Positions 2,417-64,000 of a stretch of DNA of 64,000 nucleotides are shown one piece after another; position 1 is the first letter of the stretch; each line of letters opens with the position of its first letter. The notes under the pieces were generated by a model. It had not been told where the DNA came from, did no database searches, and saw only the letters and a program-made list of their open reading frames with translations. The position numbers and the translations under genes were made by a program. Source of the stretch: Nageia nagi (taxonomy: Eukaryota > Plantae > Pinophyta); contig JBITNC010000001.1 of assembly GCA_050084985.1 (NCBI GenBank), forward strand, positions 119,908,001 to 119,972,000, in the 5' to 3' direction.

Positions 2417-2419
2417 AAA

Positions 2420-3409: not shown

Positions 3410-3443
<34 letters not shown>

Positions 3444-4090: not shown

Positions 4091-4126
4091 ACATGTATGC
4101 AAAAAGTGGAATATGTATGTTGACAA

Positions 4127-10520: not shown

Positions 10521-10579
10521 TAAATTAAGGTAAAAGATACACCATTAGAAATTAAATGTCATGCCAAATTAAAATGAGT

Positions 10580-15457: not shown

Positions 15458-15702
15458 TTATTTTCCTTTGATCCTTGTACCCTCTACATCTTCCATTGAA
15501 GCCTCTATAAGATCCACAACTATGGCATCTTCATCTACATCACCCTCATCATCCCCCATACCCACATCCTCATCTCCCTCAACCTCCATGTTATCCTCAT
15601 CACCTTCTTCCTCATCTTCTCCCTTTGTAGCCGCCTCCATATCCTCATCATCATATAGGCCAAGGGGAAGTGGTCGATGTGCATCCCACCATGCAATGTA
15701 TA
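15458..15702 (-). pseudogene. PMD C-terminal end plus acidic tract of element C's antisense gene (downstream of the B insertion)
   Basis: Joining 24561 to 15702 across B restores in-frame LDVYIAWWDAHRPLPLGLYDDEDME..., followed by a D/E-rich region. Confidence 0.75.
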
Positions 15703-23684: not shown

Positions 23685-24555
23685 TTTAGAATATAAGCAG
23701 AACAAATCCTAGTCTCATCATTTTCTCAAGTTATTACTCTAAGCACCTCGAGTAAGGGAAGAGATAATAACATGAATGGATTCATGACCCCTAATAAGGG
23801 ATACCCTATAATGGAATCTAGGTGTGTAAGAATGTTAGATTCACCAAAATATAGACCCTAAATTATGTAAAATACAATTTATAAATGATATACAATATAA
23901 GAAGATATATATGTACACTATATCAAATATAATAAATATACATGAAAAGCATGCACTTGATATGAAATGTATGTACAATCATTAACAATAAATAGTAATG
24001 AATCTCTAGAGGGTTGGGATTGGATTGGAGGCAAGTTCATAATGGATCTTCACATGTGCAAATCTATAGCCTTAGCCATCAAAATATGGAACCCTCGATC
24101 TTTAAGATGCATACTATTAACAGTGTTGAATATGCAAAATTATGAAGTGCACCAAAGATAGATAGTTTCAAAGCTCAGAGTATAAAAATTTCTCATAATA
24201 GGTGGCTTCAAGAGATACCATTTCTTGATGAAGTTTACGATAGACAACTATCTATTAGATATCTTATCATATCAAGGAGTTCCAATATGTGGAGATCAAC
24301 CTATTCCATTCGCATATATAGCCTGCAAGAACATAGAAAGGAATGAAGGCCAACCTCTAACAATAACATAATCATTGTTGTATTCAAGATACTTTAAAAT
24401 ATGAACCATGATAAATGATATAACATTTAATTTAACACATGGCATTACATTGTAATATCAACTTTATCTTGATATTTGTAATATTGTAATAAGTCATTTA
24501 GGAAGTCTGAATATTATTTATTAAATAAATAATAAATCATTTTTAGGCATATAGA

Positions 24556-25700
24556 ATATACATCTAATAACTATGTCACTATGGAATCATTAACATAAAA
24601 TCCTAAGCCATCATCATATGGGGAGACTAATTCATGTTCCAACAAGGTACTACCTCATAATTAGATGGGTCTAATACATATATAACACATACTCAAATCA
24701 TGATATGATATAAAGGAGGTATCACCTACTCACAATCCAATTAATTAAGCATCATATGGTTGGGCTTGTATGGCTCAATGAATATATTTCTTGTTTGGAG
24801 ATAGTAAGGAGTTCACTTCCAACTTAGTTCATAAGTGCTCTCATCCCATGTTGGATGCCCATATAGTTTATACAATACATCATCAAGAACCAAAATATTA
24901 GCAACATTCTACCATTATCCCAAAAAAGTATGTACATATAATACCCTATGACATATGGCCTACGAACACCAATTTAGAAGATCATCATACTTGATATCTA
25001 CAAGTAACTCAGGTGGTAGAAAGATTAATATATGCTCATATGTCCAACATTAAAGAACATATGTATGAGCTATTCTCCTCCCATTCTTCATCACAAACAC
25101 AAAATTATACAAGTCATGATAAATATGGGCAAGTATGCAAGAGATCCAAGCAAATTTATCCCCCTTCACCATCATCTTCAGTACATGGATCAAGGCATAA
25201 GAAAAGACTTCATGATTCTTATGAGGATATTTAATATTGTTTATGCATGAAATTGTGATCAATCTCATATATCTCTTATGTGTAGGCCTCTTTTGAATAA
25301 CTTTATGGATAAAGGCACCTTTCTTGATGATATGAAAGTCATCATAACCTATTAACCACTTGGCATCTTTTCCCATACTAGTCATAGTAAGATTATCCTT
25401 CATGCACATGAAATTCTTGTTCATAGGAACCCTTAAGATTCAAAGAATATCCTCCAAGGTTATAATAATTCACTAGTATGTAGGTGAAATGTATTAGTCC
25501 TTTCAAACCACTATTTGAACATAGTTGTTAACAAGTATTTATCCACACATACATATGAAGCCTCAAGTAAATACCCCACTCTTGAACTCATAAATAAACC
25601 AAGATCATATCTTCAAATCAAGTCCTAATAGTTTCCCAAATCTTGCTTTATGTATCTACAACTACAACATGTGATTAGGCCTACCAAAACATTGAAGACC
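24556..25700 (-). pseudogene. PMD core of element C's antisense gene
   Basis: LLTTMFK*WFERTNTFHLHTSEIIITLEDIL*ILRVP (~25535-25425), KFAWISCILAHIYHDL (ORF 25050-25424), L*CWTYEHI. Confidence 0.8.
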
Positions 25701-41000: not shown

Positions 41001-41986
41001 TTATGGTGGTAATACGCCAAATCTTCAAAAAGTGGCCATAAAAACCTTATCCCAACTAGCTAGTTCTTCTGGGTGTGAGTGAAACTGGAGCACTTTTGAG
41101 CAAATTCATTCAAAGAAGCGCAATAGGCTCACCCATGAGCGTTTAAATGATTTGGTTTTTGTGCATTACAACCTTTGCCTCCGTCATAGACAAATTGAAG
41201 GAACAAGTAATGACGCAATAGAGTTGGATGAGATTGATGCAAGTGATGTGTGGGCTTCATGGTTGAAGGATGTGCTAGAAGAGGTTAGGATTTTGATTTC
41301 AATTTTCAACTTATAGATTAGCTATTGAATTTGATTTTGAATATATTTTATCAGCTTTTGATGGGCAATGCATTTTGATTTTATAGTCTCAGGATTTCGA
41401 TTTTACCTTTGAAGAGTATCAAAGGATGCAAGAACAAGCTTTTGCAATGGGAGAGGAAGCTGAAAGGGTGGCAACGGAAGCAGAAAGGGCCCAAGGGGGT
41501 ACATTAGTAGCAGGACCATCACATAGAGGAGATGCTCTTGAAGATGATATTGATGATGATAAACCTCTAATAACAACTAGGTCTAGGGTTGCAAAAGAGA
41601 GATTGCGAAAGGCAAAACATGGATGATAGCTCATAGCAATGTTGTAGTAGCAGTCACTGGATGAATGTTTTGAATCTTGTGATTCAGATTTTGTTGTCAC
41701 ATTGAAAATCTTTAATGTTTTTGATCCTTGACACTTGACATTCGATATGTAATATTGAACAATACAATTTCTTTGATATGCAATGTTGGATATTTTATGT
41801 GTTATTCTATATGGAATGTTGTTTATTTGATGTGCAATATTCAGATTTAGCTAAAACTGATTTGTTTTAATATCAAATAGGAGAAATTCCTTCATTTTTT
41901 CTCCATGCTAATTTTATCTGATTTTTCAAAAAATCAAAATACTGCAACCAAATGATTCCGATTCGATTCCGATTTTTTTAACCATG
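38078..41986 (+). mobile_element. hAT DNA transposon (3.9 kb) in the 5' LTR of E
   Basis: TIRs CATAGTT...AACCATG; perfect 8-bp TSD ctgggtat (38070-38077 / 41987-41994); subterminal AATCGG/CCGATT repeats; empty site present in the 3' LTR (~48210). Confidence 0.95.
38610..41626 (+). pseudogene. hAT transposase (BED zinc finger, DUF659, hAT dimerisation domain), multi-exon, with stops/frameshifts
   Basis: AWPY...LICNFC; GCSILSDGWID..GRTLLNFL; LWWEYYG...LSQLASSSGCE*NWSTF...LNDLVFVHYNL; several AT-rich GT-AG introns. Confidence 0.9.
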
Positions 41987-42992
41987 CTGGGTATTAGTCA
42001 TATTCTTGTTTTCTACTTTTAGGCCCTTCAAAGCGTTGTTGGACCTCCATCTTCAAGACAAAACATGTTTGAGGCTTCTCGGGAGCTTTCCTTGCTTGTC
42101 AGATGCATTTTGGTGCTTTGTTGTGCAATGCTCATTGTGTCTTGTCGTGTTGTGTTCATACTTTAGTTGATGTCGCTGCTCTTGTTGTGCGACATTCAAT
42201 GCTATTCTGACCTTGTTGCTTGCTCTCAAGCTTTTGTTGACATCATCGGCCTTGCCACCTGGCACTTAAGTGTTTGTCGTGTCATGTCGTGTTGACATTA
42301 TTATTTACGTCATCACTGATGTCATTGCTCTCGTCGCCTAGCATTCAATGCCTTATTGCCTTGCTGGACTTTCTTTGAGATATTTTTGATGTCATTCGTC
42401 TTGCTGCCCGACACTTAGTGCGTTCTTGTCTTGCTGCATCGTGGTCAAGCTTTTACTAAAGTCACTGCTCTTGCCGCATCTTGACAACCCTATTGATGAT
42501 GCCATTGCTCTTAGCACATGACACTCAGTGTTTCTCTCCCTATGCCACAATATATTTGTTGATGTCATCATGTGGAAAGTGTGGCATTCCGTCTTTTTCC
42601 CTGTGCTGCATCGCGACAACACTTTGATTGATGTCATCCTTGCAAAAGTGCGACATTGCCCTATTTCTTCTTGGCGCTGCATCACAACAATCTACTTGTT
42701 GATGTCAACATCTCTAAAGTGCAACATTTCACCTTTTGCCTTGTTCCGCATTGCGACAAAGATTCTATTGATTTCATCAACCTCAAAGTGCGGTAATCCG
42801 ACTTTTGCACTATTCTTGACCATGCCAACTCAGTTCCTGATTGCGGCAACTCCATTCTTTCGTACAACTTTGTTTGATTGCGGCTACTGCCTAGTTTGAT
42901 CGTGACTACTTGAGATTTGTTTGCAGTTATTTTTCTGTTGAGCACAACTCATTCTTCAATTGGTGTCAGAGTTGTACAATTTATTGGATTAA

Positions 42993-45900
42993 ATGGATGG
43001 AAATTCCTCGCAGTTGCCGATCCTTGTGTTCAGTGGTGAACACTTTGAATATTGGAGCATCAGAATGAGAACTTTTCTCATCTTTCAAGATCTGTGGACT
43101 CGTCTTTCACGGTTATACAAAAGTAGATGCAGCGATGTTTTCACTACTCTCAGCAGATGAGAAAAAAGAGCTTTTGGACATGCAGAAGAAGGATGCCAAA
43201 CCTTTGTTTGCATTACTGAGCAGGATAGATGTTTCAATCATCCTTAAGATAGCAAAATGCAACATTTCAAAGGATGCTTGGGACACACTTGAGAGTGCCT
43301 ACAAGGGCTTCGCCAAGGTTAGAGTAGCCATGCTGCAAATGCTCCGAAGAGACTTTGAATCTCTCAAAATGGTTGATAGAGACCATTGAGGTCTTTATGA
43401 ACAAAGTTCAAAACATAGTCAATGCCATTCATTCTCATGGTGAGGATCTTGATAACACCCAGATTGTTGAAAAGATTCTTAGAAGCCTTCCTCGACAGTT
43501 TGATCCCATCGCCATTGCAATAGAGGAGTCTAAGGACTTGTCCCAACTTACTCTAATTGAGTTGGTTGGAAGCTTACAGACCTATGAGCAAAGGATCAAA
43601 GACAGGTTTGAGGACCTTGGTCAAGATTTCCAAGGTGAGCTCAAAATGAATGATCAGGCCTCCACTTCCAACACTTTTTCAAAAGGTTGCAGAAGAGGCC
43701 ATGGTAGAGGAAGAGGTCGGTCAAAAGGTTGATTATCCAATGGTAGCCAGAGCTCAGACTCCCGACATTGTAACTTTTGTGGAAAGGATGGTCGCACGAA
43801 ACAACAATGTTTCAAGAAGAAGAAACAATAGAAAGATAATTTTAGTGAAGAGTTCGACGACGTTGAACTTTTTCTGATTCACAACAACTTTGAAGCGGTT
43901 GATGATTTGGTACTTGGACAGTGGCTGATCTAATCACATGAATGGTAACAAGAACCTGTTTGTACAACATAAAAATGTCTCAGGACAAGTCAAGTTTGGC
44001 GACAAAAATCATGTTAGCATCACCGACAGAGGTTCTATTGCTTTCAAAGCAAAGATTGATAAGATCATGCATATGTATGACACATTGTATGTTCTAAGGT
44101 TGGAGCATAATCTTCTGAGCATTGGTTAGATGTGCTTGAAGAACTACATAGTCTTCAAGAAGAAGCATTGCACCATTACAAATGAGACCAATCGCCAAGT
44201 AGTCGCTCCTATTGTCATGTTTGAGAATAGAATGTATATGCTCAGAATGTCGTTGATATCTGTTAAATGCTTGAAGACAACCCTTGATCCGACATGGTTG
44301 TGGGACAAGCAGTTCGACCATGTCAACTTCAACTCATTGCGGGGGATGCACAAGCTTGTGAGAGGTTTTCCAACCTTCTCCAATCCATTAGACACCATAT
44401 GTGAGAGTTGCATTTTTGGGAAACAACACTGCGACAAGTTTTCCAACCACCTACATTGTGCTAAGGCACCCCTGGAATTAGTGCACGTCGACCTCTGTGG
44501 TCCTATGCAGACTACCAACATTGCCAAGTGCAGGTATATGCTGATTTTTCTCGCATGAGTTAGATATTTGTTGCAAGACAAATCCGATGCTTTTGACTAC
44601 TTCGTCAAGTTCAAAGCATTGGTTGGAAACCGATTTGGCCATACTTTGAAGAAGTTTCGGATAGACAGGGGTAGTGAATTCATTTCTAACGAGTTCAAGG
44701 ACTATTGCAACACGTATGAGATTAAGTGGTAATATACAACTGCCTATGCTCCTCAGCATAACAACGTTGCAAAAGGGAAGTACTGCATGGTTGTTGAAAT
44801 GCTCGATGCATGCCGAAGGAGATGGACATGGACAACAAATTATGGGGGAAGTTGTTCACACTATCGTTTACATCTTGAATTGCTTCCCGACCAAGGTTAT
44901 GCAAGATTCAACCCCCTATGAGGCTTTGTTTGGCAAGAAAACGAGTATCTCTCACTTGAGGATCTTTGGCTCCACTTGCTATGTGCATATTCCTAAGGAG
45001 ACTAGGCATAAATTGGATGAAAAATCCATTAAATGTATCTGTGGGATACTCTGATGAGTCCAAAGCCTACAGATGCTACAATCTAGTATTCGACAAGTTG
45101 CACATCAGTCGTGACGTGATCTTCAACGAAGGGGGAGTTTATTCAAAGGGTTCTGACACTTTTGACATCGTCCCTAAGTTCGAAGACTCCAATTCCTCTG
45201 ATCTGGCAGAGCCCCAGCTACCTTCCCACCCTTAACCGCCCAACCCCTCGGTAGCTCCTACTTCCAAGAAGAGTATTGCACATGATCATCCGCAATCTCA
45301 GACGTTAGATGATGACTTAACCAAGTGTGTGATCCGACTACGCCTTGATGTCCTCTTCCCTCCTTAAGCCTTCCAACTCCAAAGAAGCGACGACAAATGA
45401 AGATTGGAAATTGGCAATGGAAGACGAGATTGATCATATCCTAAACAATGATTCCTAGGAGCTTGTCCCTCCTGCAAAGAACAAGAATGTCATTGGAGTC
45501 AAGTGGATCTATAAGTTGAAGCACAATGTTGATGGTAGCATTGCAAAACACAAAGCCTAGGTGGTTGCTAAGGGCTATGTCCAAAAAAGCCTCAATTACG
45601 AAGAGACATTTGCACTTGTTGCCCGCCTTGAGACGGTTTGCTCTCTTCTTGCTTTAGCTTCCCATTTTGGTCTAACAGTCTACCAAATGGATGTCAAGTT
45701 TGTTTTATTGAATGGAGACTTGGAAGAAGCCTACTTGAATCAACCCCAAGGATTCATCATCACCAACCATGAGGACAAAGTTAACAAGCTTAAGAAAGCT
45801 CTTTATAGGCTAAAGTAAAGCCTCCTCACGTGGTATTCTCAGATTGACACCTACTTCCATCAAAATGGCTATCAAAAGTGCTTCGCGGAAGCCACATGGT

Positions 45901-47151: not shown

Positions 47152-47947
47152 TGTTTACAAATATTTTGAGAATGCAAATAAATAAATAATTACAAAACCC
47201 AAGATACTTATTTCGAGCTACGGATAGCAATTTAGACCATACAAAAAAAACAGATGAAGAAGATAGCCACTCTAGAATTAGGATGACAATACCAATCAAG
47301 AATTGTGATTTGTATACTTACCTTATGAAGTGTACCTGACACTGGAGAATGATGATATATTTGATATGTGGATGGCAGAAGAATCCTGCTTCAGAAGCTA
47401 TGACCTGATATCATCAAAAAAGGACCGCGGGCGATCTATATGCTGTACAGGAGGAGCGTTGGCGGTGTATTTAGCATAAATAAGGAGCGCCGACGGTCTT
47501 CGTCAGATTGTCTTTTGCTTTCAAATCAAGTCAATTATTTGCAAATAGATGTTTCGAACAGAGTATAGATTGTCGATGTCAGAATAACTCGCGTAAGGAT
47601 GTACACAAACCATAGCCTTGAATGGCGACGTCAAGAGACACCTAAAAGATTGCCACAACCAGGACCAGATATGGGATCATGTATCTTCTTGATGTGGACT
47701 TACTATTAGATCCCTATTTATATAGATAATAATATGACCTACTCCTTAGGTTGGCGTGTACCTACATAAACAGGGTTAGCCCACAATACATAATGATATT
47801 CAAGACAACCATATATTCAAAATAAACATTGACATTATAACCATATTCAAGATAAGCATTGATATCATTGCATTAAATATTCTAGGTGTTTATTAGTGCA
47901 AGCGAATGTATTTATTTAAATGCATAAATAAATTTTATGCGATAACA
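47152..47947 (-). mobile_element. Solo LTR (796 bp) in the 3' LTR of E
   Basis: TGT...ACA ends; TSD ccatg/ccgtg; absent from the E 5' LTR (~37800); minus-strand ctatataaatagg at ~47713-47725. Confidence 0.85.
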
Positions 47948-48883
47948 CCGTGATCAGTCAGGAGCCTCCAATACTCCACCTTTTGTATCTATAAATAGGA
48001 TTTAGTCTTCCTTTGTAATATGTAGAAGAGATTATTGTTATGTTATGTTGCCATTTTCAGCACTCATAATAGAAAACATTTCGTTTGCTCTACAACTCTC
48101 TATTTTCATTCTCTTTGTACGCTTGAGCGACTATGTATGACTCGACATCTTTGTGCAAGCATCTTGAAGCTGGTTTGAGGTATTTCTCACCATTAAGTCC
48201 ACATTTTAGCTTTTGGGTATTAGTTAGATTCTCATTTTGTGCTTTCGGTAGTGAGATATCTTGGTTTGCATTCTTGTTGCCCTATTTTGCGTCTCAAAAA
48301 AGTTTCAGCATTTAAGTTTTCGACTTAGTTTTTCAGTCTCGTGATTTTCCTTGGTGGAATTATGACCAAACCAAATTTTCCTTCTTGCACTTGTTTGAAT
48401 TTGTTTTTAGGCCCTTTAGAGCATTGCTGGACTCCATCTTCAAGACAAATGTGTTTCAAGCTTCTCGGGAGCTTTAAATGCTTGTCAGATGCATTTTGGT
48501 GCTTGGTCGTGCTTGTCATGTTGTGCCTTGCTGCACAGTGTTCATACTTTGGCTAATGTCACTACTCTTTCCATGCAACATTCAATGCTATTCTCGCCTT
48601 GCTACATCGCTCTCGAGCTTTTGCTGATGTCATCGCTCTTGCCACCCGACACTTAAACGTTTGTCGTGTCATGTTGTGCTGACATCTATTGTGACTTACA
48701 CAACACACCCCAAAATCTTGCGATTTTGGGAACCCCAAGCCTAAGTGTCATCACTTAATCGGTCTTTAGTCATGATAGAGTAAACATCAAAATCCTTCGA
48801 AAAATGGCTAAGTCTGGGAATCTTAAGTTGAGTCTAGGCAAACCCAAGTTGAGTCAGGTGAAACTGGGCCACTCCTTGGCCCA

Positions 48884-49765
48884 GTGCATGCCTCAAAAAG
48901 ACAAGTTTTTGTCTTTCTAGGATGTGCGCTCGGATTTGGGAGCTGTCCAAGTTGGAATCAAGTTTGAAAAAGGTAAACTAGGCCACTCCCAAGCCTAGCT
49001 TATGCCTCAGAAAGACAAAATCTTGTCTCTCTAGGATGTGCGCTTGGATTTGGGACAAAATGGAAAATGAAAGAGGTGAGCCTGGACACTTCTAAGTTAG
49101 ATGCACCCCTCAAAAAGACAAAATCTTGTCTTTTGGGGGCATGCGCTTAGCACCAGAGGCCGTCCAAGTCAGGTTCGAAATCGGAGAAATGAAGCTGAAG
49201 CTCCTAGGAGGTGAGCGCACGCTTCAAAAAACAAAATCTTGTCTTTTGAGGGCATGCGCTCAAGGTAGAGAGGCATCTAGTTTGATCACATAGTGAAATT
49301 TGGTTAAGGCATGGAGCCTTGAAGCTAGTAATTAGCTCAAACACGACCAAAGGGGCAGGCGCTTGATTTTAAAAGACAAAATCTTGACTTCTTGAGGCAT
49401 GCGCCTGACCCAGGAAGACATTAAGTTGGCAAAAACAGTGAAAATTGACTAAGTCCTGATTGCAAAAGGCCCAAAATCAGTCAAATTGGGCAAGTGCAAC
49501 CCAACGCATGCCTTGGAAAGACAAAATCTTGTCTTTGGGACATGCGCCTAGCTTGGGAGGTGTCCTAGTTGAGCATGATGATCAAATTTGACAAGTTTGG
49601 ACACTAGAAAGGGCAAATTTGGATAAGTTAAGGTCCTAGCAGGAAGTATGAAGGTCAAGACAAACGAGTGGAGGGGCTAAGATAACTAATTGCCAAAGAG
49701 CATACATCTCCAAGTTGAGCGCATTCTCCAAAAAGATAAAATTTTGTCTTTTTTGGGCATGCACC
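48884..49765. repeat. Array of seven ~45-bp palindromic motifs (core AAAGACAA-AATC-TTGTCTTT flanked by GCGCATGCC...GGCATGCGC)
   Basis: Copies start near 48884, 48998, 49100, 49214, 49358, 49505 and 49717. Confidence 0.9.
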
Positions 49766-49920
49766 CATCTTGAAGTGCCTCACTCACCCCACGCCTGATT
49801 TTTGGCGGCCAAGCATTAGAATCTGGATGTGCACGCATCTCAAGGTCGGCCATTTGGACGACCAAGATGAATTCCTCAACATGCATGGTTGAGTAGGGTT
49901 TGTTGGAGACCTAATTTGCC

Positions 49921-49950
49921 TATATATATAAGCTCAGAGGGGCTCATTTT
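49921..49950 (+). promoter_or_regulatory. TATA core upstream of the unit F gene
   Basis: TATATATATAAG...GGGCTCATTTT, about 230 bp before the ATG at 50154. Confidence 0.55.
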
Positions 49951-50153
49951 CTTAAATTCAAATCATTCTCCTCTTCATCTTTTGCACTAGAATTGCAAAA
50001 AGAAGACATTTTTTTTGAGTTTCGAGTCCATTCCACTACCTTTCAAGGCTTGCACAAGAGATTGGGTGACAAGACAAGGCAATGTTGGAACACTCTCATC
50101 CTTGAAGGACCCGTGCATCACTCTCGGAGGCTCTTATCATTTACTTGGCCAGG

Positions 50154-53100
50154 ATGACCACTTCCAAGAGTAGTTTGGCCAAAGAGATTGCAAGAAAATT
50201 GGAGATGTTGAGACAAGATTGTACCATTTCGATATGTGAAAGGTGAGAGCCCCTACCACAAGTGGCTAGATTCTCCAAGAACGAGATTGTCACTATCGGG
50301 GACACGGACTAGCAGAAGGTAGACCCCATGCAAACGAGGGAGAAGATATGCAATGTGGAGATCACCATATTGAAACAAGATGTTGTGTTCTTCTCAGGAC
50401 TCTCTACATGTACCTTCATCCTATTCACAACCCCTTTCTCAGAATTGTTCATAGAAGTGAGCCAACATTGGCATAAAGGGGAGAGGATGCTTAGGGACAT
50501 CAAGGGGGATGTCATCATGGACTTCAGTCCTGAGGCCATCAAGAAGGCATTTCATTGGACAACAAAGGGAAATTTCGAATATAGTGAAGTAGAGTCACTT
50601 GCGTGTTGCCAAGGGACCAACAAAACTGTCGTTGTATCAGAGATTAGATGCTGGAGGAGCATCATGGCCTTAAGGGAAATGCTCTCATCAATCCCTCGCA
50701 TGCCAACTTCTACCCTGCGGTGGAGTTGATGATCCTAATGTTGTCAAGAATCCTCAGAAGAGAAGATGCCTCCAAGTTCAAGAAGGAGTTCTTTGGCTTC
50801 ATCGTTGAGATGGAGAAGGGAAGAAAGATCAAATGGAGCAAGGTGTTGAGTGATACCCTTGCAGAACAATTGTTATCTATGGGCACTACATGCAATTTCT
50901 ACCTCAACTCATACTTGGTATAGTTGTTGCTTCATGGTAAGCATAGACCCATGGCTCAAGGGGAGGTCACATGGATTGAGAGAAGAAATACGTTGTATGG
51001 AAATGCTACCCCAAGTGGAAGGTTGAAAGGAGATGGGATAGTTTCTTCATGAGAAACGATGGATGGGAGTATGAGGTCTACAAGGAATTAAAGGGAGAAA
51101 TCATAGTAACTAGGATCTCAAACTCAGCTCAAGATGCCTTCAGGAAGCATTGAGACTTCTTCATCCATCATCAACACTATTCCTACATCAAGATTTATGG
51201 ATCAACCGTGGAGCCATATTAGCTGCCCATATATTGTAGCAATAGATTACTCTTGACGGAGATGATGTGATAGTTGGCCTTCTTGCATGAGCATGTGTGG
51301 CACAAGAAATCGGTCACCTCAAATTTGCCGATCATAGTGGGAGAGTATCAATGTAGAACTTGGGCGAACATGGATTCGATGAAAGAGGAATTGGAGAGAT
51401 TCCACTTCAAGAAGATGACCATCGTAGACCACTATGATCCGGAGCACAAGATTCATGGCTTCTATATGAAAAAAAGAAAGGTAGCTTATGAGCATAAGCT
51501 ACTTAGAGACGAGGAGCCATTCAAAAATGTAAGTAGTGAGGTGGAGATGAGGAAGATTCGTGCTAAGATGCAAGAGGAAGCTCAAAAGTAACAACAGACC
51601 GTCAAGGCGACTATTGACAAGAGGTTGTCATAGTCAAGAGGAAAGAGACCACAAGAATCCACATACAGAGTTACCCAGTTTCCCTTGATAATTGAAGAAC
51701 TTGTTGGCCAATATGCTTCAATGCATGGCAAGAATTCAATTGAGAAGGTAGTGGAGCAAGTAAGAGTGACCATAGATGAACATGACATGAGAGAGTTAGA
51801 AAACGTGGCAACCAACAAGGTGGTGAGGTGCGTCAAAATTAGAGAAAAAGATCCATCACCTCCACAGAGACCACCTAGAGGATCGACTCAATGCCCATCT
51901 ACAGTTGTCCCACCATCTGGGTCTTCATCCTCTAGCCCTTTGTACGAACCAAATGATAGCCAAGGAGAAGAACAAGAGGGTGAACAAGAAATGAATGCAG
52001 CTCAACATAATGAAAATCCTAGATGCTCAGGAGGAGGAATCCTTGAGAATTTTGGGGTAGTTTAGAAGCCTGTCTCATCAGAGCCTTCCACATCTGAAAG
52101 GAAAGGGAAGAGCCCAACCTCCGAATCAGTCTCGAGGAGAGCCCAACAAAAGAGAACATCTCAATCTCGGTCATCAGAGGCACCAAAAGAAAACATGGAA
52201 GAAGAGGCAAAGTCTTCAAAAAGGCCTAAGAAGAATGTCACCATCAGTCAAGAGCCAATCATTTAGACCCACTAGCCGTCACCCAATGATGAGTGGGGTA
52301 TAGATATGGACGAGTGCCTTGACGTTTTCAACATAGACGTCGGGGAGGAGTAGGTCAATGACCAAGTTGGAGAGAGTTACACTCGTCTTGGGAAGAGTCA
52401 GACGTATGTGCACTTGACCAATAACACATTTCATATCAAGACCATATACGCTGACAAAGACAACCCACAATGGCCCGAAGACCTCAAGCAAATAAATTAG
52501 ATTAGTAATATAGGTCCCATTGGCATTGTTGGTAGGAAACTTGTAATCATAGCCAACACGGACACAATCGCCAAGGACGGGTTGCAGAAGGAAAAGGAGA
52601 TCAAAAGCCTCGAGAAGGAGTTAGCCGCCCAAAGGAGATTGACTAGAGAGAGAGTCCGCGAAGGTACCTCTTGAGGAACTCAAAAAGTTAAAGCCTTTGA
52701 AGGAGGGGATGGTTGCTGTGAAACAAGAGGTGATTGACAACATCTTGGGAGTGGTGGCACAATTTGTAGATGCCTTACAAAAGATCTCAATTGAGGAGCA
52801 GAAGTTGAAGGATATTGTGGCCAATAGGGTTAGCTTCCTTAGGATGTTAGAGTCTTGGAGACCCATCATAGAGAGATTCCAGATGACTTAGGACTAGAGA
52901 CCAGAGGATGTTAGCTTTTGTGAAGATTATTGATTCTATTTGGGTGTGATACAACAAATAGCTACTCACTTCCATGAAGTGAGAAAGGAGGTCACCAAGA
53001 TCAATGATAAGGCCAACTCAAACCTAGAGTAGATGGATTTCGAGGTTAGGTTTTTGGAGGAGGATACCACCATCAGGGAGGCAGACTTGGTAGTGACTGA

Positions 53101-53281
53101 AGTCAGACATCTACTCCAAAGTTTGTTCATGACTGAGGTTGTCAACATATACCAGATTGGAGGCCACCTTAAGCACATGTTGAGAGCATACGACTGGAAG
53201 ATTGAGATGCAGGAGTTGATCATAGCGAAGTTCTTGGATGAGGACTTTGAGGATCGAGTTGTGGCCTTAGGCCCACCATAA
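50154..53281 (+). pseudogene. Unit F gene: ~1000-aa uncharacterised retroelement accessory protein (conserved N-terminal domain, low-complexity linker, coiled-coil-like C-terminus), disrupted
   Basis: Consecutive + strand ORF pieces 50328-50729, 50648-50923, 51274-51591, 51685-52065, 52697-52891 and 53033-53281 align in order with the unit H pieces. No gag, PR, RT, RH or INT motif seen. Confidence 0.8.
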
Positions 53282-53509
53282 TAGTTGCTATTTTATTTTA
53301 ATTTTATTTTCTAAAGAAAATAAGTTAATTTTTGCAAAATACTTATATTATTATTATTTTATTCTCAAACTTGTGATGGATGAGGATTTGCTCCCACAAG
53401 TTTGGAAGGGATCTTGTAACGCCATGTGGCACATTTTTATTGGAACAACTTTTATTTTCTCATTTTATGTAATTAGGGTTAGGTCAACACCTAGGGTTGC
53501 CATGAAAAC

Positions 53510-53535
53510 TATTTATACCCCTTATGGGCTCATTT
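53510..53535 (+). promoter_or_regulatory. Second TATA core of unit F (probable LTR promoter)
   Basis: TATTTATA-ccccttat-GGGCTCATTT, equivalent to 58874 in H. Confidence 0.55.
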
Positions 53536-54159
53536 GTAAGGGGGTTAGACATTTTAACAAATTGGAAAGAACTTTGCTTGAAACACAAAAATTCTCAAAA
53601 ATTTGTTAATGTGGCGTATTTGTATTTGACTATTCCCATATGCTCTCATGTTGTGATGATAGATATGAATGAATGATGATAATGCTATCTAGTTGAGTCT
53701 ATTGCTGCTTTGTGTTGATTCATTTCACTCGGTGTATCTTGTAAACCTTATGTAAGGTGGACAAGAGAGTGCTTGTTTATCCTTCAAAGTGGTTGAATGA
53801 CATATTACTAGTAATACTTTATCATTTGCAATTCAGGTTTGAATATCTTGGAATGCCTTGTTCATGTCACTCCATGTAGGAACTTCACCCTAATTATCAA
53901 AGATTACCCCCATCTTGTTGTGGCCTCCACAACACGACCCAAATTCCCAGCGAATTTGGGGACCCACATTTTGGCTAAAGGGACTTTTGAAGCAAGAAGG
54001 CAAAGACAGGGGTAGTACCACCTTGAACATAGATCTTTAGGATGGGACCCAACGTGCCCGATTTTAAGCCAAAAGGGAGCCTGGACGGGTAAATTCAAGA
54101 AAAAAGCCAAATTCTCGGCTAAGTGTCGAACGTGCATCCTCTTCCTAGGTGTACATTGG

Positions 54160-54780
54160 GACTAAGACAAGATTTGGGACCCCTTTGGGACTTGCGCTAG
54201 GATTCTCTTGTCTTCTTGGGCACATATCTTGCTCAAGACACCAGGCTTGTCTCCTTGGGCACTTGCGCCAGCTTTGGAGGAGCTCCAAGAGGTGATTTCA
54301 AGGGTCCAAGGCCGAATTTGTCTATGTTTGAGATAAGACCAAGCCCATTGGAAGTCTAGACAATCCCAAATCTCATGATCCCTTGCAGACTTGCACCAAG
54401 CCAAACCCATATCTCCCCCAACGCGTGTGCCAAACTAGACAATCGTCCTGACCCCATCATGACTTGCACTGGGATCCACCCCGTCTGTTTGGGCGCATAT
54501 CTTGCCTAAGACAACAAGCATGTCCCCCCTCCAACTTGCGTTGGCCCCTAGCCAACCTCCTTGAGCGCATTCCTGGCCCAAGACACCAAGTTTGACCCCT
54601 CGGAAGGATGCGCACAAGACTAGCCCCCTTTTGCAAAGCGCATGGCCAGCTATAAACACGAAGTATGTCCTTCCTGTGACTTGCGATGGGGTCCCTCGCC
54701 TAGTTTGAGCACGCATTCGAGGCAAGACAAGTCCCATGACCCTTTTTGCACTTGCACCAGCCTCCTTGGCCCTCACCTCC
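54160..54780. repeat. Degenerate GC-rich motif array of unit H (gcgcatatcttgc.caagaca..a.gc.tgtc.cc)
   Basis: Best copies near 54217, 54490 and 54562; further aagaca cores at 54165, 54616 and 54724. Confidence 0.65.
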
Positions 54781-55454
54781 ATGTATGCCTCAGCCTAGAC
54801 GGCCTATCAAACCCAGCTATCCCATGTGCTCACCCTACTCGGGTCAGCCAACCTCAAACTTTGTGCCATGATGCCTTGAAAATTGTGCTAGAATTAAATG
54901 TGCATTTACCAAGGAAGAGCAATCGACCTAACCCTAGGAATTGCGCACCAAAACCCTAGAAAATCTGGTATAAAAAGAGGAGCATCACCTCATTTCCTCA
55001 TCTCACCATAGCTCTCTCCCTTTGCCATTCGTCCAAGACATCCAAAGTGAGCACCTTTACATCCGAGCCAGGGCAAGAACAACCAAGCCAAAATCCATCC
55101 TGATAGACACCAAGAGGCAAGTAGCCGAACCCCACATCTGCTTCGTCTGGTTGCCTGCACTTCACAAGAGCCTCCTATCCGACCAAGACCTGAACAACCA
55201 CCCCATGAACCCCTAGACCTCATGCGGCCATATTCAAAACCCTCCCTACCATTTGCGTGAGCCTTCCCAACGCACCCTTGGACCTAGATGCTGACCTTGA
55301 CCTTTCGTACCCATGCGCTAGGGCCTGAAGCTCACCCACTGTCCACCGTCACATCTAGGATCCACGTCGACCCCTCTCATCAGATCCCACCAGAGGGCCA
55401 ACACCCATTACCTCTAGCCGTCTGTCTCACCCAGTCGTGTTTTCCAGGTACATC

Positions 55455-58400
55455 AACATAGACAGACTCCGATTTAGCCCTGACAATTGGGGACGAAGCT
55501 TGAAATGCCTGTTGAGAGATAGCCCAATTGAGTTGGAAAAAGACGGGGCAGACCCCTAACTAGAAGCTCACATCAAGAACGGCCTAGTAAACATTTGGAA
55601 ACTGATTGGCAGCGCACAAACCCAATGAAAATGTTGGATAACGTTGTCGCGATTCCTCTTGACACCTTGTCTGTCGATGTGATCTATCAATTAGGATTAT
55701 GTACGATCACAATGATACCTTTTGCGGTGCCTTTCCCAGAACTATGCTACAAGGTGGCCAAGTTATGTGACGTAGGGGCAAGGACGCTTCGAGACACCAA
55801 AGATTGAGTGATCATGAGGTTCACCCCAGAGGGTGTGGAGGAGGCATTTGGATGGGAAGGAGATGGCATTGAATTCATCGAGGACTCCCTTGCCTTCTAC
55901 GAATTGTTGAAGGGCCAAGGGAACTTGATTAGAGATTGGCTCCTCCCTAGTGCCAGGGAGCTCAAGGGGAATGCCTTGCTGAACGCTAAGAGGATGGATT
56001 TTCACCCCACCGTCTCCAACTTGATTTCCTTGTTGTCTAGAGTGTTCAGGAAGGAGGATGACACTAAGTTCAGAAAGGAGTTCTTCACCTTCATCTACTT
56101 GATAGGAAGGGGAAGGAAGATCAGGTGGGGCCATACTATAAGTGAGGCCTTGAAGAACTAGATATCATCTTGCGAGACCACAAAGAGGTTCTACATGAAT
56201 TCCTATCTGGTATACTTGCTATTGGCTGGCAAGAATAGACTGATGGCCCATGGAGATGTCTCTTTGTTGAACAAGCCAGGTATAACCATTTGGAAGTGTT
56301 ACCAGAAGTGGTTCTGGGGCAGTAGGTATTCTCACTTTTACATGAAGATTGATGGATGGGAGTATGAAATACTCAAGGAAATCAAAGGGGAAGCACATAT
56401 GAAGAGGATAGCCAACACAACCATTAATGCCCTAAAAGGGCATGCCAACTTCTACCTGCACCACTCTACCTACTCTTACATCAAGGTGTTTGGATCATAT
56501 GTGCATCCACACATGTTTCCCAGACGTGTAAGCAACCAGATCATCTTGATGGAGTTTTGCTACCAGATGTCCTTTTTGCACAAATAAGTGTGGAAGAAGA
56601 AGGCTGCCACCATCACTCTCCCCATCATGGTTGGAGATTATGCATGTGCCTTGTGGGTGGATGTGGATAACATTAAGATTGAATTGGGATACTACGGATT
56701 CAAAACACTCCCTACAATCGAAAGCTATGATTTGGAAGGAAAGATTGCTACTTTCATGAAAAACTTCAAGAGGTCCCCGTATGTGCACAGATCTTTAGGC
56801 TCAGAAGAAAGATTTAGGAATGTGACAAGGCTAGAGGATATCAAGAAGATACATGCAACAATCATGCAAGAGAACAAGAGAGGAAGCCAATCAAACCCCA
56901 TCGTGGAAGCCAAAGGAGGAGGGAAGCATAAGTCACCTCAAACAGCTCCATCAGGCTCCAAGAAGGCAAAGGAATCGTCCACGTCTTTGAGGAGGCAGGG
57001 TCACACACCGGATAGTATGCCAGCATGGGAGGCCCTTAGCGGTCTGTAGGAGACATAGCGCAAGCCATCTAGGCCTAGGTGAAAAACACTCATGAGTTGG
57101 AACCAAGTGGCTCAATGTCACCTAGGGGGTTGAACCGAGAAGAGCTAGCTAAGGAGATATACTTGAGGTGGACATCCCAAGTTCCTGTTGTAGAAAACTT
57201 GGAGAGTTTGAGTTCCGGGTGCAACCTTGAGAGTTGAGGGGGCAATGAGCATGAGGTAGAACAATGCCCAAATGAAGATGAGGCTATGAAAGGTATGCAG
57301 GATGAAGCAGAAGACGAAGAGCCTATGGTAGAAGGTGCCAAGTGGACGATAGCTCGTTGGAAGAAATCCCCCAGGCAAAGATGACAAGCTCCAAACCCTT
57401 GCCATCTGAATCGACCTCACAGATGAGCCACAGAAAGAAACCCACACCTCAGATACAATCCAACGCTTTGCACTAGAAGAGGCCACCAAGCGAGCTCAAA
57501 AAAACCCCATATCAGGCAGTGGGTCAGACAAATGAGGAGATTGTAGTAAATAGTCTCATCCCTTGGACCTTCCTATGCCAACGAAAGTGGGGAAAAGGAC
57601 TTTAGCTTCTTGGATGAATATCTCCGACATTTGAACACTCATCGGATAAAAGACAACGATGAGGAGATTGAAGAAGTCTCTAATGGGGAATGCTCTCAAC
57701 CAATGGACTCTAAGACCTTCGCCCAACTGAAAGGTTCGTCCATTGTGATCAACAAGGCAACGACTCATAAGAAGCAGCCACAAGGTGCACAGGACTAGAA
57801 GATCCAAACGCAAGAGATCCTAGTAGGTCTTATCGGGCTAGAAGGGCATGAGTTCAACATCAATGCCAGTACTTCTGCCCTAAGACAAGAGGGGACAAAG
57901 AAAGATATAGAGATCCGAAGGCTAAAGAAAGAGTTGGTTGCCAAAAGCAAGTATAGCGAGGAGGTTGAAGCAGTTTGGTGGTAGCCAAAAGATCTTAAAA
58001 AGCAGGCTTCGTTGAACGCAGGCTTCACATTGATAAAGGAGGAGCTAAACAAGGACATCTTGGAAGTGGTGAAGGAGTTGTCCGAAAAGCTAGTTTTAAT
58101 GTTGATTGAGAGGTGTGATCCCTATCAAAACGACATTGAAGAGGTACGTGGAAAACAGAAGACAAATAGGTGACTGAAGAATATTGCATCAATTTTAGCT
58201 TCTACGTCGATTGGACCTAGGGAGCCATTTGGAAATGCAATGAGTTGGTTAAAACGATGGCTAAGGAAAAGGAGGAGATCAAAGCCCAGATAGATGAGTT
58301 TGTGTTTGGGATCATTTTCCTGGACGATTTTGGGTTCGCCAGTAGGGAGGATCTCGTGTCCACGGAAGCATACGACCTATTGAACAACATGATCCAAACC

Positions 58401-58616
58401 CAGGATGTGAACATGCTCAAGGCCAAATGTCCCTTCAGGGAAGAAAGGGAACTTGCAGTGTGGGAGTACCAGATGAGGCAGGTCGTGAAGAAGATCTCCA
58501 GATAGATCAACATGAACCGCAAGACCTTCGATGTGGTGGACATGGGTGCGGACAAGATGGAGGCATTCATGTGTGAGAACTTCGAGGATGACATAGCATT
58601 GCTGATCGGGGATTGA
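55455..58616 (+). pseudogene. Unit H gene: paralogue of the unit F protein, disrupted
   Basis: ORF pieces 55595-55807, 55808-56161, 56195-56587, 56588-57049, 57610-57798 and 58245-58505; shared motifs LKGNAL, LSR..R.ED..KF.KEFF.FI, GRKI.W, FY.NSYLV, WKCY.KW, DGWEYE..KE.KGE, YSYIK..GS, LPI.VG.Y.C, FED. Confidence 0.8.
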
Positions 58617-58873
58617 TGAGTCCTTTTGACCCTGGACATAGTCCTCATGATATGTAGAGATAGGATGTTTTTCACCTTGGTGTTAACAGCGTTTCATATT
58701 TTTGGATTTTTGGGCGAATTTATTGCCATTTTATTGGCAATTTATTTTACTTTTAATTTAGACTTCATATGGTGATGCTAGCTGGCATAAGTTTACCAAA
58801 GTCGTTAATGATTAGGATTATTTTAATGATATTTTTAGGGTTAGGGCAACACTTAGGATTGCCATTGAGAAAC

Positions 58874-58900
58874 TATAAATAGCCCTAAAGGGCTCATTTT
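58874..58900 (+). promoter_or_regulatory. Second TATA core of unit H (probable LTR promoter)
   Basis: TATAAATA-gccctaaa-GGGCTCATTTT. Confidence 0.6.
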
Positions 58901-59968
58901 GAGGGGATTAGACAATTTTGTAGACAAAGATAACTTAATTAATATTTTCTAGCTTGCAAGTTCTCTCTATTTGTAAATGTGATGTATTTGAAGTAATTGA
59001 ATGGTGAATGCTCTCATTTTGGAAGTATGAATGTGAATGGATGTTACCCTCTTGTGTTATCTTGAATGCTTGGTACATTTTGTAAATCTTGATTGAGGTT
59101 GACAAAAGAATACTTGAATATTTGTGGTATGTTTTGAGATGGCTCCCATATGTCACTTAGCATAAGAACTTCACTCCCTCATCCAGGATTGACCTGCGTC
59201 TCATCAATTGTCACCCTTGCTTTAGCATCAGGCTTCCTTTGTTAAACCATTCGTGTTGTTGGTTAGTGAAGTGGATTCAGAGTGCATGGAACCCATAACA
59301 AGCCCGTAGGAGTTGATTCTTGAAAGTCAATGCCAGTTGGTGAGACCATTACACCTTAGAGCTGAACTCACACATCACTATCTATTCAGCCCTTTTCTTT
59401 GTTTTTACCCTTTTTCGGTGACTTTCGCACCCCTCTTTCATTTTGTAACTCGAGAAACAACCTTTGCCTGGATCCAAGGACAATTTGAGCCTTTGGGTAA
59501 CAAATATTATTTGTGATAGCTTTAAACATCTCAATCGTGTCTCTCGAGCCAGTCTTAGCCCATCCATCCTAATAGACCTTTGAGATTGAAGTCCTCATAG
59601 CGGGTATGGGTCACACCCTTCCACTCAGGTGTTGGTGCCTATCTCAAGCCTTGCGAGCCAATTTGTCGATCGACAAGGTAGGAAAGAAAAAGCCCCCAAC
59701 ACATCCTATCCTTTACCATCTTTGCCACAACTTCATGCTTCTTCCACTAGACCATTTGTGTTGTTGGCTAGTGGGACGGATCAAGGTCAAGTCGATTTTC
59801 AAGGCCTTATCCAAACTCGTGAGTATGCATGCTTATAGTCACATCCTTTTACCCACTGTCTCTTCACCACTTTTTCCTTTTATTTTCATTTTTCTTTGCA
59901 CGACTTTCGCACTCATTTGTTTCCTTTTAGCATTTTCTGGAACAACACTATTGAACCATAGGTATAAC

Positions 59969-61205
59969 TGTAATGATCCAAATACAATCTCAAGTGCAAA
60001 TCAGCAAATTCAATTAATCAAACACTAACGTCTGGTCTAGGGCATCCAAACAATGCATTCACAACTCAAATATGCCAACATCTGGTCAAGATCAACTCAC
60101 AACAATAATTACAAGCTCACAATGCCAACGTTTGGCTTACACATGCAAGAATGGACAATTACATCTCAACATTGCAAATATAGACAAGTGCACAATACAA
60201 ATATGAGATCCAATGCCCGAAGGCTGTATATTGATATGAAATGAACAACAATACAATACCAAGCCCTAAGGGGCTGACGTTGGCCTCAAGGGAGCCAACT
60301 CAGACATAAACATGTATCCTCAAACTGGATGGACGGATGGAATAGTCTTGCTCCCTCAAAATCCGAATCCTCTCCACCAAAGGAGCGCTCCTCTGATCCT
60401 ATTGACCAATTGAATGGTAGAAGCTCAACCTCGGAATACCACCGGATGGGCAAGGGTGCTACACCAATGCAATAGACTAACAGGATCCCTCAGCTTGATA
60501 GCCCTCGTAGATGCTGCACCTAGGGGTTTGCTTAGCGCTGCTAAGTCTTCTTGTCCTTTGGATGGTATAAGAGTAATAATAATCAAGCATGTCCAGTTAT
60601 GAAGCTCCAATGTCCTTTTATAACATTTGCCGCTAAGTCTTCTTGTCCTTTGGATGGTATAAGAGTAATAATAATCAAGCATGTCCAGTTATGAAGCTCC
60701 AATGTCCTTTTATAACATTTGGCTGGATCTGGATCTCACCTAGGAATCATTCCCATCTTCTCTAATCCAACGTTAGCCTCTTGGAGGGCCCAAAATGTGC
60801 CTAGGGGTCAAGCTTGCCAACGTGGGGGCCTGGAGTGCCATAAATGCCAACGTGGGGATCTGGAGTGCCATGCATGCCTAACGTGGGTCTAAGAGCCATG
60901 CATGGGGGTTGGGTGTCATCATGGGCCAACATGGGGGTCTAGGAGTCTCCCTAAGGTTGGCGCATGTATATAAGTGCTCCTCCATCCATCTAAGTGCTAA
61001 ATAGACCTTGGGATTCCCAAAATCATGATCTCCAAGTACATGTAAACACCTAATCTATGCTTAAGAGGGAGACGTCCCACTTGGGGCCATTAAGTCTTCT
61101 ATCCCAAGCCACAACTAAAAGTACAATGCAATAATAAAATATATTACAAAAGGGGAATCCATTGGATTCCATAATTAATTACATGGATGCAAAGGGGACA
61201 TCACA
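59969..61205 (-). mobile_element. Solo LTR G (1237 bp) nested in the 3' part of unit F
   Basis: TGTAA...TCACA ends; perfect TSD ataac (59964-59968 / 61206-61210). Confidence 0.88.
60540..60721. repeat. Exact tandem duplication (two identical 90-bp copies, period 92)
   Basis: 60540-60629 equals 60632-60721. Confidence 0.9.
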
Positions 61206-62011
61206 ATAACTCAAAGTCCCTTAAATCCGTACATGATATTGATGTTGGTGGTAGCTTCAAACATCTTAGCGATTCCTTGAGTCTTATTCTTGCAACATAA
61301 GTGGAATGACCTTTGAGTAACTAGTTCCCATAGCAGGAAGGAGTAACGTCCTTTCACTTGAGCTGTTGGTGTTTTTCTCACTACTCTAGGGTAGGAAAGA
61401 AAAACCACCCAACAATGTCATTACTTACGTCATTGCTCTCGTCGTCCAACATTCAGTGCCTTATTGCCTTGTCGGACTTTCTTCGAGCTTTTGCTGATGT
61501 CATTCGTCTTGCCACTCAACACTTAGTGCGTTATTGCCTTGCTGCATTGTGGTCAAGCTTTTGTTGATGTCACTGCTCTTGCTATGCAGCACTCATCGTT
61601 TCTCTCCCTCTACCACATCGCGACAATATATTTGCTAATGTCATCTTGTGGAATGTGTGGCATTCTGCCTTTTTCCCTATGCCGCATCGCAACAACACTT
61701 CGGCTGACGTCATCCTTGCAAAAGCACAACATTGCCCTATTACTTCTAGACACCACATCATGACAATCTACTTGTTGATGTTAGCATCTCAAAAGTGTGA
61801 CATTCCACCTTTTGTCCTGTCTCGCATCATGGCAAAGTTTTTGCTGATGTCATCAGCCTTAGTGCAGTAATCCAACTTTTGCACTATTCCTGATTGCGGC
61901 AACTCTATTCTTCCATACAACAACTCTGTTTGACCGCAGCTATTGCCTTGTTTAACCACGGCTATTGACCGTGACCACTTTTGTGTTGACCGTGGAAACT
62001 CAAATTCTTCA

Positions 62012-62400
62012 ATTTGATGTAGATGTCTTCATGCAAATCTGTACTAAGGAACGTCATGAACCTCCCAATCCCTAGAAGTAGCAAGAAGCACAAGTCTTGC
62101 GAAGGTTTCAACATAATCAATGACTTTCTGTTGAGGAAAGTTTTCAAGGTAGCCTTGTGCTTCTTCACTTGTCCTTTTGAATTGAAATTAGTTACATAAA
62201 TCCACTTTGACCAACAATATTTTGATCTTGTGGACAGGGATCCAATTACTATGAATAATTCTTCGTGAAGGAATCACACTCTTCTTTCTCAAAAGTTCCC
62301 CATTCAAGTTTGCCTCTGGCCTTCCCATAGGCACTTGGATCTTCTGTTACCAGTGAAGTTAACATGTTTCCCTTGCCTTGCCCTCTGTTGACCAAGTCAA
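62012..62400 (-). pseudogene. pol: Old Ty1/copia (J) RT N-terminal remnant, continuing at 37551
   Basis: EDPSAYGKARGKLEW, SKWIY, VKKHKATL; reads in frame across the E insertion as DLHEDIYIK*LPRFVKQKLCK. Confidence 0.75.
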
Positions 62401-64000
62401 GATTAATGAGATAAATAAGGAGAATGGAGTACACAACAGTTAGTCAGTAGAGAAACAGTGTGATATTCAGTGTCTCAAATATTTGCTTGCTTCTTTCTGG
62501 TTTTAAAAGAATGCCATTCTCTTTTTTTCTGCAGTTGTCACATTAGAGTTATTTTTTAGCTGTAAGTTTATATAATATTTTGGTATATTCAATGAATAGC
62601 AAAGCTGTTTGAGCTTTCATAATTGATATAAAGATTTCATCATAGCTATAATAACATAGTGACATGCATACAGGTGCTATAATGGATTCACTTACAACCA
62701 CTAATTTGTCCTGAAGTAAGATATAATAACAAAAGTACTAGTTCAATATTTTATCAAATATTTGCTCGATGCTTTCCATCTATAAGAATTCTATCCCTTT
62801 TGTTCTATTGAGGCCTTCTATCTGAAGCCATTTTGTAATTAATAATTATAAGCTCTCGTTCCTTATAGTGTGTTCAATGAGTATGAGTGCTGTTACAAAT
62901 TTTCATTTGCTAGAAATGTCTCAGCATAGTTATAAACTTATAATAATGCATCTCAACGCATTCATGCCTTTTACACAGTTTAGATTTTCTTTAATAACTT
63001 TAATTTTTAAAGCTTCTTTGGACTAATTAAAAAAAATCTAAGCTTTTTTAATTATTTTAAATCTAATAACTTTTATGTATTAATTATATTCTTATAGATT
63101 TAAAATAATTAAAAAAAATTACTTTTGTAATTTGAATTTGGTTGCAAATTCTATGAAAAAATCCTATAGCGGTGAATTTTTTCATAAAATATCACAATGA
63201 CGTGTTCATAGATTATTTCCTAACATAAACTTCATAGACAATAGGGTCCTCTTTACAACTAACTACCTGTTGCTTTATGCAGTCTTTACACGTACGCTGA
63301 AGCATGGGGGCCTAACACAAGTAGTTGAAAGTGAAATGCATGAGGATAAAATAACAAATAATTGACATTTTGGAGTGAGAAACACCTTCTGAAATTGTCA
63401 TCGGTCTTAAATGGTGGACCCAAAGTAACCAATTTGTTTTACAGCAGATATATTGGAGCCACTTGTAGCATTGAAATTCAATACATTGTATCTGGATGCT
63501 TCTTTAGTACGTTAATTATTTTTTGTTGTAAGCATTGCACTGAATCTTTTCCTTGAGCACACATCCCTTGGCAACAAAAACATATTCATATGATGGCGAG
63601 GGAAAACTAAGGGATATTTACACTCTTTATCAGGTTGAATATTTTTATGATTCAGTTGTTGAGTCATCATTGTCATCAATAAGGTCACAATTACAGTTCA
63701 AAATCACTGCAATGGCATTTATTATGAATAGGTTGTTCAGAAATTTTTACATCATATTTGGACTCAATACGTTTACTATATATCTCAATAAGTACACAAA
63801 TCTCTCTTAGTAAGAGAATCCGTCAGTTTTGCTTTTTGTATTTTTTTAAACTACTAAAAATGAGGAATATCACGTTTTTTGGTGGGATTAGTTTTACAAT
63901 TAATTTTAACTAACTGCTTTCCATCTTTTGCCAACAAGCAGTGGATTCTAAAAGTTTCTGGCAACGCTGGAAAGTTGATCATTTCTGAAGCGTCTAAGGT

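Follow-up and report, generated by a model that had tools for sequence, protein, structure and literature searches.

Two related 5.7-kb units with a gene inside, probably solo long terminal repeats, in the conifer Nageia nagi

Locus and unit boundaries

The stretch of the Nageia nagi genome analyzed here (the window: 64,000 nucleotides, GenBank assembly GCA_050084985.1, contig JBITNC010000001.1, positions 119,908,001 to 119,972,000 of the forward strand) is AT-rich plant DNA built of nested repeats. Two of these, unit F and unit H, are related, have ends of the long terminal repeat (LTR) type, and enclose a broken gene of about 1,000 codons; they are the subject of this study. Positions are counted from the first base of the window, and features lie on the plus strand unless stated otherwise. 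Unit F, a likely solo giant LTR, consists of three pieces (48687-53915, 59707-59968 and 61211-61414; 5,695 bp net), and its whole span, 48687-61414, includes unit H and a third insert, G. Unit H (53916-59701; 5,786 bp) is nested inside the tail of F. The termini read TATTG…CCAACA in F and TGTTG…CCAACA in H. Hence, the coordinates, the LTR-type ends (with A as the second base of F) and the net length of about 5.7 kb that a first-pass annotation, made from the sequence alone, had proposed are all borne out.

That annotation had also described 5-bp target site duplications (TSDs). These are present at both units, but they are not exact: four of the five bases agree at H (CATCT at 53911-53915 on the left, CATCC at 59702-59706 on the right), and three of five at F (ACATC at 48682-48686, ATGTC at 61415-61419). 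The weak duplication at F is supported by a paralogous empty site, located near 42295 in the other LTR of the host copia element, which has a single copy only, ACATT. Judging from the bases themselves, both target-site copies of F could be derived from one CpG-containing site through deamination.

An alignment of both units is colinear from the first base to the last. Identity amounts to 77% over 48 bp at the 5' end, 60% over 717 bp of the open reading frame (ORF) and 83.5% over 85 bp around the second of two TATA-like cores; in the tail there are matching patches, and the final 25 bp are 92% identical. A terminal direct repeat was found in neither F nor H. The best local score between the 5' and 3' ends of H is 27 (shuffles: mean 21.8, maximum 29), while the LTR pair of the older host copia element, taken as a control, scores 347 in the same comparison. 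Within F or H there is no motif resembling a primer-binding site (PBS) on the plus strand, and minus-strand matches occur only mid-unit; no polypurine tract (PPT) adjoins either unit. Motifs of gag or pol are likewise absent from F and H, whereas the copia control gives three motif matches. Alignment and motif scans thus agree with the lack of all these features noted earlier. Because F and H are younger than the host copia element, and its LTR blocks still share 82-88% identity, terminal repeats should be visible. Short true LTRs around the ORF inside the unit, which the first-pass annotation had named as the arrangement that would contradict it, were looked for and occur in neither F nor H. 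Together with the ends and the TSDs, this lack of internal repeats excludes an LTR-ORF-LTR structure.

A third copy and the size of the families

When metagenome contigs were scanned with the 5' motif, a single locus, L001, emerged. Its similarity to F begins at the same TGTTG base after an unrelated flank, and five array units of the F type follow; no purine tract lies ahead of this start. Both ends of the contig carry exact inverted duplications (1-127, 2773-2899, 3137-3256, 7226-7345), which point to plant DNA in the metagenome record that became chimeric during amplification. Since the contig looks chimeric and stops before any ORF, L001 confirms the 5' boundary only, and nothing but the 5' junction and the array was used from it. 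The same contig contains an LTR related to G (2934-4106), with a purine tract and an ORF-like region ahead of it; the upstream position of the purine tract fixes the direction of this LTR.

In skim assemblies of three out of four sequencing runs (two of them from one sample), contigs cover all 30 bins and are mostly less than 95% alike. Because thousands of diverged contigs align over F, H and G, these are multi-copy families, even though depth there does not equal copy number. No skim contig bridged a unit end informatively. Scans of viral contigs gave no match, the scan of prokaryote genomes gave zero, and a metagenome scan with P0096, a distant homologue of the encoded protein, gave 92 candidates, none of which was confirmed.

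Non-coding anatomy

Two hairpins open both units at equal positions (48687-48731 in F, 53916-53960 in H). In folding comparisons they reach z scores of -5.5 and -5.6, with none of 200 shuffles as strong, and compensating changes preserve the pair of F in both H and L001. For the 3' terminal hairpin of H, the z score is no better than chance (-1.3). Of the common layout that had been proposed, the shared order of elements therefore stands; the 5' hairpin, however, is not single but a pair, and the 3' terminal hairpin of H falls away.

A motif array follows the hairpins. The array of F (48883-49770) comprises seven partly palindromic units of about 45 bp, 103-215 bp apart, with the core AAGACAA-N4-TTGTCTT inside GCGCA…TGCGC; six units were located by pattern search, and the seventh was added by eye. 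The word AAAGACAA occurs ten times in this array (shuffle maximum: six), and 11-15 of 20 bases pair within its units, against a background with a median of 10 and a maximum of 12. The array of H (54150-54760) is non-palindromic and has a period of about 72 bp with the scaffold GCGCA…AAGACA…TGTC…TGCGC; its unit positions were placed partly by eye, and its self-match has an E-value of 1e-10. The array scaffold is found only twice elsewhere in the window. Both units hence carry family-specific tandem motif arrays in their non-coding DNA, with significant enrichment in F only.

Four cores of the form TATA…CTCAT, two per unit, are present, every one on the plus strand. The first cores (49923-49947 in F, 54969-54993 in H) are consensus matches ahead of the ORF, and the one in F would be the ORF promoter. 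The second cores lie downstream of the ORF: the one in F (53510-53533), a putative start of genomic RNA, belongs to the best-conserved promoter block, and from the one in H (58874-58897) a T-rich tail, about 800 bp long, extends to the CAACA end. Conservation between F and H is strong for the second core (score 121, reached by none of 1000 shuffles) and indistinct for the first (score 30, reached by 208 of 1000). The two cores within F are weakly alike (1 of 1000 shuffles). Furthermore, the direction of the cores agrees with that of the core in the G-like LTR of L001, which is oriented by its upstream purine tract. The separate promoter and second TATA claimed for each unit thus exist as consensus matches, and their promoter role is putative. 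Rfam gave no match over 48600-61220.

The gene of about 1,000 codons

The ORF of F (50154-53281; about 1,045 codons) encodes a conserved N-terminal domain, a low-complexity linker and a helical, charged C-terminus; that of H (55461-58616) spans 958 codons, and its uncertain start perhaps lies further upstream. A reading frame of about 3.1 kb had been claimed in each unit, and it is there, but it is intact in neither: F has 18 internal stops and four frame segments, H nine stops and five frame segments. Both copies are pseudogenes. The idea that the gene survives as a self-contained, working transcription unit is therefore not borne out by these two copies.

The ancestors of both ORFs were nevertheless under purifying selection, given the codon-position pattern and the comparison of nonsynonymous (dN) with synonymous divergence (dS): identity between F and H is 62/67/43% at codon positions 1/2/3 (373 codons), and dN is 0.49 against a dS of about 1.8, which is near saturation (dN/dS about 0.27). 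The two proteins are 41-50% identical, and their homology reaches the C-terminus at 21-34%. At E<=1e-3, a profile search of 1.84 billion proteins returned 235 homologues; the list covers the best 150. Among the matches listed, proteins of Taxus chinensis are the only named homologues. This is a gymnosperm protein family, whose members are named merely 'hypothetical protein'. P0112 is an intact homologue of 1,010 amino acids with the same layout. P0096, from a 23-kb contig, and P0112 are more distant members, forming a subfamily that is 23-28% identical to H. One listed match, P0130, was dropped as spurious (fibronectin repeats). Word-index protein searches gave one, zero and three matches.

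Pfam yielded nothing credible in six window pieces or 31 homologues, with PMD (PF10536) and DUF1985 (PF09331) below the cut-off; a sequence-profile search of the PDB with the ORF protein had no matches, and Foldseek found none at E<=0.001 against the PDB and viral models. No 19-residue window exceeds a hydropathy of 1.8 in seven window pieces or P0112, and a role similar to env was rejected for want of a membrane helix.

Predicted fold

The N-terminal domain was modeled for H (55625-56863; VANC21-like part 55646-56419). Its best structural match is VANC21 (PDB 9LNK), covering most of 258 N-terminal residues at 8% sequence identity, a root-mean-square deviation of 4.5 Å and a modest Z. According to this model, the ORF protein is likely of the PMD/DUF1985 (VANC) fold, and it is predicted to bind DNA. 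A putative C-terminal coiled coil was gauged by a crude heptad score. The published sources, cited here and below for the portions of their text that were available, report that PMD and DUF1985 are structurally alike (bioRxiv 10.1101/2024.09.27.615353; PMC13547354), that VANC21 binds short motifs of family-specific tandem repeats and thereby causes loss of methylation (PMC5735166), and that VANC is dicot-specific (PMC13547354). The arrays of F and H differ in spacing and symmetry while the proteins are 41-50% identical, a pattern that would fit co-divergence of motif and protein.

Interpretation and alternative models

The best fit for F and H is that they are solo LTRs, and we regard this as probable. 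The ends, the TSDs and the lack of internal repeats agree with this claim of the first-pass annotation; LTR status itself is inferred, as no full-length paired copy was seen. Paired 5.7-kb copies around PBS, gag-pol and PPT were found nowhere in the viral, metagenome and prokaryote collections, which yielded one 5' end only. The inserts E and G, which share the host LTR with F, are likewise solo, and a solo:intact ratio of 5.5:1 has been reported in Taxus (PMC9364684). Our overall reading, to which we assign a probability of roughly 0.55, is that of solo giant LTRs of two related gymnosperm families with a whole accessory gene inside (PMD/DUF1985, VANC21-like, with a helical tail). The lineage of these families is probably Tat/OTA gypsy; the likeness to Tat elements whose extra ORFs encode a PMD/VANC-like protein is a resemblance and not an assignment to Tat or VANC.

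In the proposed mechanism, integrase would insert a full-length element, and LTR-LTR recombination would then leave one LTR. Genomic RNA would start at the second TATA core, so that the array, the first TATA and the ORF would make up U3, while the first TATA would yield a subgenomic mRNA. This location of the gene in U3 is put forward tentatively, at a little short of even odds. The gene perhaps entered U3 when the site of plus-strand priming moved to a position ahead of an extra ORF that had been internal. The protein, in turn, would bind the motif array of its family and protect the LTR promoter from silencing, in the way VANC acts on the tandem repeats of VANDAL elements; by this analogy it may have opposed silencing, which we consider doubtful. 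A self-protecting U3 module (array, promoter and VANC-like gene), which would make each LTR, solo ones included, an autonomous source of a trans-acting demethylating factor, is an extension of the same analogy and an unlikely one.

Several observations weigh against the reading as solo giant LTRs with an accessory gene. A full-length element, PBS or PPT is seen in none of the three copies (F, H and L001), and the missing PBS and PPT fit solos and an LTR-less element alike. The array of H has neither a k-mer excess over shuffles nor palindromy, and arrays of motifs are a common feature of U3 even where no array-binding protein exists. The enrichment of TATA…CTCAT is circular because the pattern was drawn from these very cores. 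Finally, 5.7 kb exceeds the LTR maximum of 'up to about 5 kb' cited in PMC6317226.

The alternative which survives best, although it is distinctly unlikely, is an LTR-less, non-autonomous unit with 5-bp terminal inverted repeats and a 5-bp TSD, moved in trans by an integrase-type or other transposase and carrying a VANC-like gene as VANDALs do. The lack of PBS, PPT and partner LTR in three of three copies speaks for it, as does the closest solved fold, that of a DNA transposon protein. On the other hand, no transposase remnant occurs in F or H, the second promoter core resembles the core of a true LTR, and the TSD lengths of Mutator, hAT, CACTA and PIF elements do not match 5 bp. TG…CA ends with a 5-bp TSD match plant LTR elements instead (REXdb, PMC6317226).

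Improbable, too, is a solo LTR with the gene in R/U5. Here, the first TATA would start the genomic RNA with the ORF as first cistron, the second TATA would drive gag-pol, and the ORF would be likened to the 5' extra ORF of Ogre, caught ahead of the PBS. The array does stand immediately before the first TATA, the arrangement of an ordinary U3, and sense 5' ORFs for PMD and coiled coil are found in Tat lineage IV (PMC4408406). By our inference, however, strong-stop DNA of about 4.5 kb would be needed. Moreover, the conserved non-coding part, which is what one expects of R/U5, consists of the second core and the tail.

It is very improbable that F and H are LTRs of the minus strand, with the ORF as an antisense PMD gene of the TatIII/Ogre type absorbed into the LTR and the twin hairpins as the U5 end. 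Terminal hairpins do occur at the U5 end of Tat LTRs, and on the minus strand the second TATA of F gives TATAAATA as well. In the gymnosperm Tat lineage III, moreover, a PMD ORF in antisense orientation is described at the 3' end (PMC4408406; REXdb). Yet the TATA…CTCAT cores in F and H are all on the plus strand and none on the minus strand.

Scarcely credible, finally, is a conventional element with short LTRs and an internal ORF, similar to a large retrotransposon derivative (LARD) or a terminal-repeat retrotransposon in miniature (TRIM), or an accidental product of deletion or recombination: extra ORFs are normally internal (PMC7264820) and the promoter cores of F are weakly alike, but direct repeats are missing in units younger than a copia element with still-alignable LTRs, two families about 60% identical share a single end-to-end layout, and no second array or hairpin pair lies 3' of the ORF. 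As specific candidates we rejected a non-autonomous LTR element of the LARD/TRIM kind, given that paired terminal LTRs and an internal PBS/PPT are both absent; recombination between internal repeats, which would have left a duplicated tail or array; and Gymny, whose layout differs by description (PMC2633040; no sequence comparison was made).

Host element and neighboring inserts

The host of F is an old Ty1/copia element (37550-62010, ends approximate), and F lies within its 3' LTR. Pfam detects remnants of gag, integrase (rve) and RVT_2 at 43376-45830, a PBS-like site is located at about 42960, and the LTRs align in four blocks that are 82-88% identical. The 5' LTR is split by a hAT-type DNA transposon (38085-41995) with DUF659, intron-split transposase remnants and AT-rich subterminal repeats. 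In the 3' LTR, the TG…CA insert E (47152-47947, strand not assigned; 796 bp, TSD CCATG/CCGTG) has no internal region and is likely a solo LTR. Insert G, an unrelated solo LTR in the tail of F, lies on the minus strand (59969-61205; 1,237 bp) with a perfect TSD, ATAAC; it is high-copy and carries a 92-bp internal duplication.

Elsewhere in the window, a young 2.7-kb element similar to TRIM/LARD (12750-15421) has terminal repeats of about 330-370 bp that are 97% identical, with 33-bp and 43-bp tandem repeats inside. An AT-rich 3.1-kb repeat without clear ends is present in two copies (42-3140 and 21401-24556; 73% identical) and a fragment (15702-16407). Degenerate satellite-like arrays (277-bp with 25-bp subunits; 137-bp; 28-bp) occupy 10524-11871 and 3619-4411. 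Short AG…GT-bounded stretches at 62340-64000 resemble host exons, in which case the nest would lie within a long intron or adjacent to one.

Implications and comparison with known systems

The literature searched, with most subscription journals outside its coverage, contained no account of a plant LTR enclosing an entire gene, nor of an LTR element with a VANC-type factor. Where extra ORFs of plant elements are described, they are internal (PMC7264820, PMC6317226, PMC3485330, PMC5418596), and nothing like the layout of F and H is described in the available portions of PMC2633040, PMC3762812, PMC13468544, PMC10508981 and PMC12859917. If the self-protecting U3 module outlined above were real, no earlier VANC-type system would be known, as far as these searches show, from an LTR retrotransposon or from outside the flowering plants. 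What the extra ORFs of plant gypsy elements do has long been an open question; a PMD/VANC-like protein beside its own diverged array in two sister families would allow a direct swap test, with the F protein on the F versus the H array. A gene in the LTR would not be removed by solo-LTR formation, so that solo:intact ratios would not measure the loss of coding capacity in these families, and such elements would be wrongly annotated by LTR finders that accept short LTRs only. All this would bear on the continued expansion of the heavily methylated giant genomes of gymnosperms.

Among known systems, the Tat/OTA Ty3-gypsy elements (TatII, TatIII, Ogre; PMC6317226, PMC4408406) share the 5-bp TSD and very long LTRs with tandem arrays, and Tat extra ORFs encode PMD plus a coiled coil (PMC4408406). 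Their described extra ORFs are internal, however, whereas the ORF of F and H lies apparently within the LTR with its own TATA and has no Pfam PMD match. The gymnosperm TatII elements in REXdb (27 elements, the longest 18,138 bp) carry extra ORFs in sense orientation both 5' (23%) and 3' (26%) of pol (PMC6317226). Such ORFs on both sides of pol are compatible with ORF-bearing LTRs, which is a weak clue, and the 5' cases may instead be due to a separate aRH ORF (PMC10508981). Retrosat2/FRetro3/RIRE3 (PMC3485330) are similar in their LTRs of more than 3 kb, their 429 solo versus 162 complete copies and their extra ORF; compared by description, they differ in that ORF0 lies upstream of gag-pol and the lineage is that of chromoviruses.

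The PMD proteins (PF10536; MAIN/MAIL1 and the gypsy-encoded PMD-A; PMC5418596) probably belong to the same fold family as the ORF protein, and gypsy elements are known carriers; the ORF protein, however, lies below Pfam detection. With VANC/VANDAL, F and H have in common a transposon-borne gene beside family-specific tandem motif arrays (PMC5735166). They are nevertheless not Mutator-like elements (MULEs), for the TSD is 5 bp and no Mutator transposase was found. The TSD of VANDAL and other Mutator elements is long, 9 bp.

A parallel for the position of the gene comes from retroviruses. Coding sequence in their U3 (sag of mouse mammary tumor virus, the nef overlap of human immunodeficiency virus, bel2 of foamy virus) lies in the LTR and is copied twice per insertion; these genes are a few hundred codons long or partial overlaps, and the LTRs measure less than 2 kb. 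In F and H, by comparison, the gene comprises about 1,000 codons and has a separate, putative promoter.

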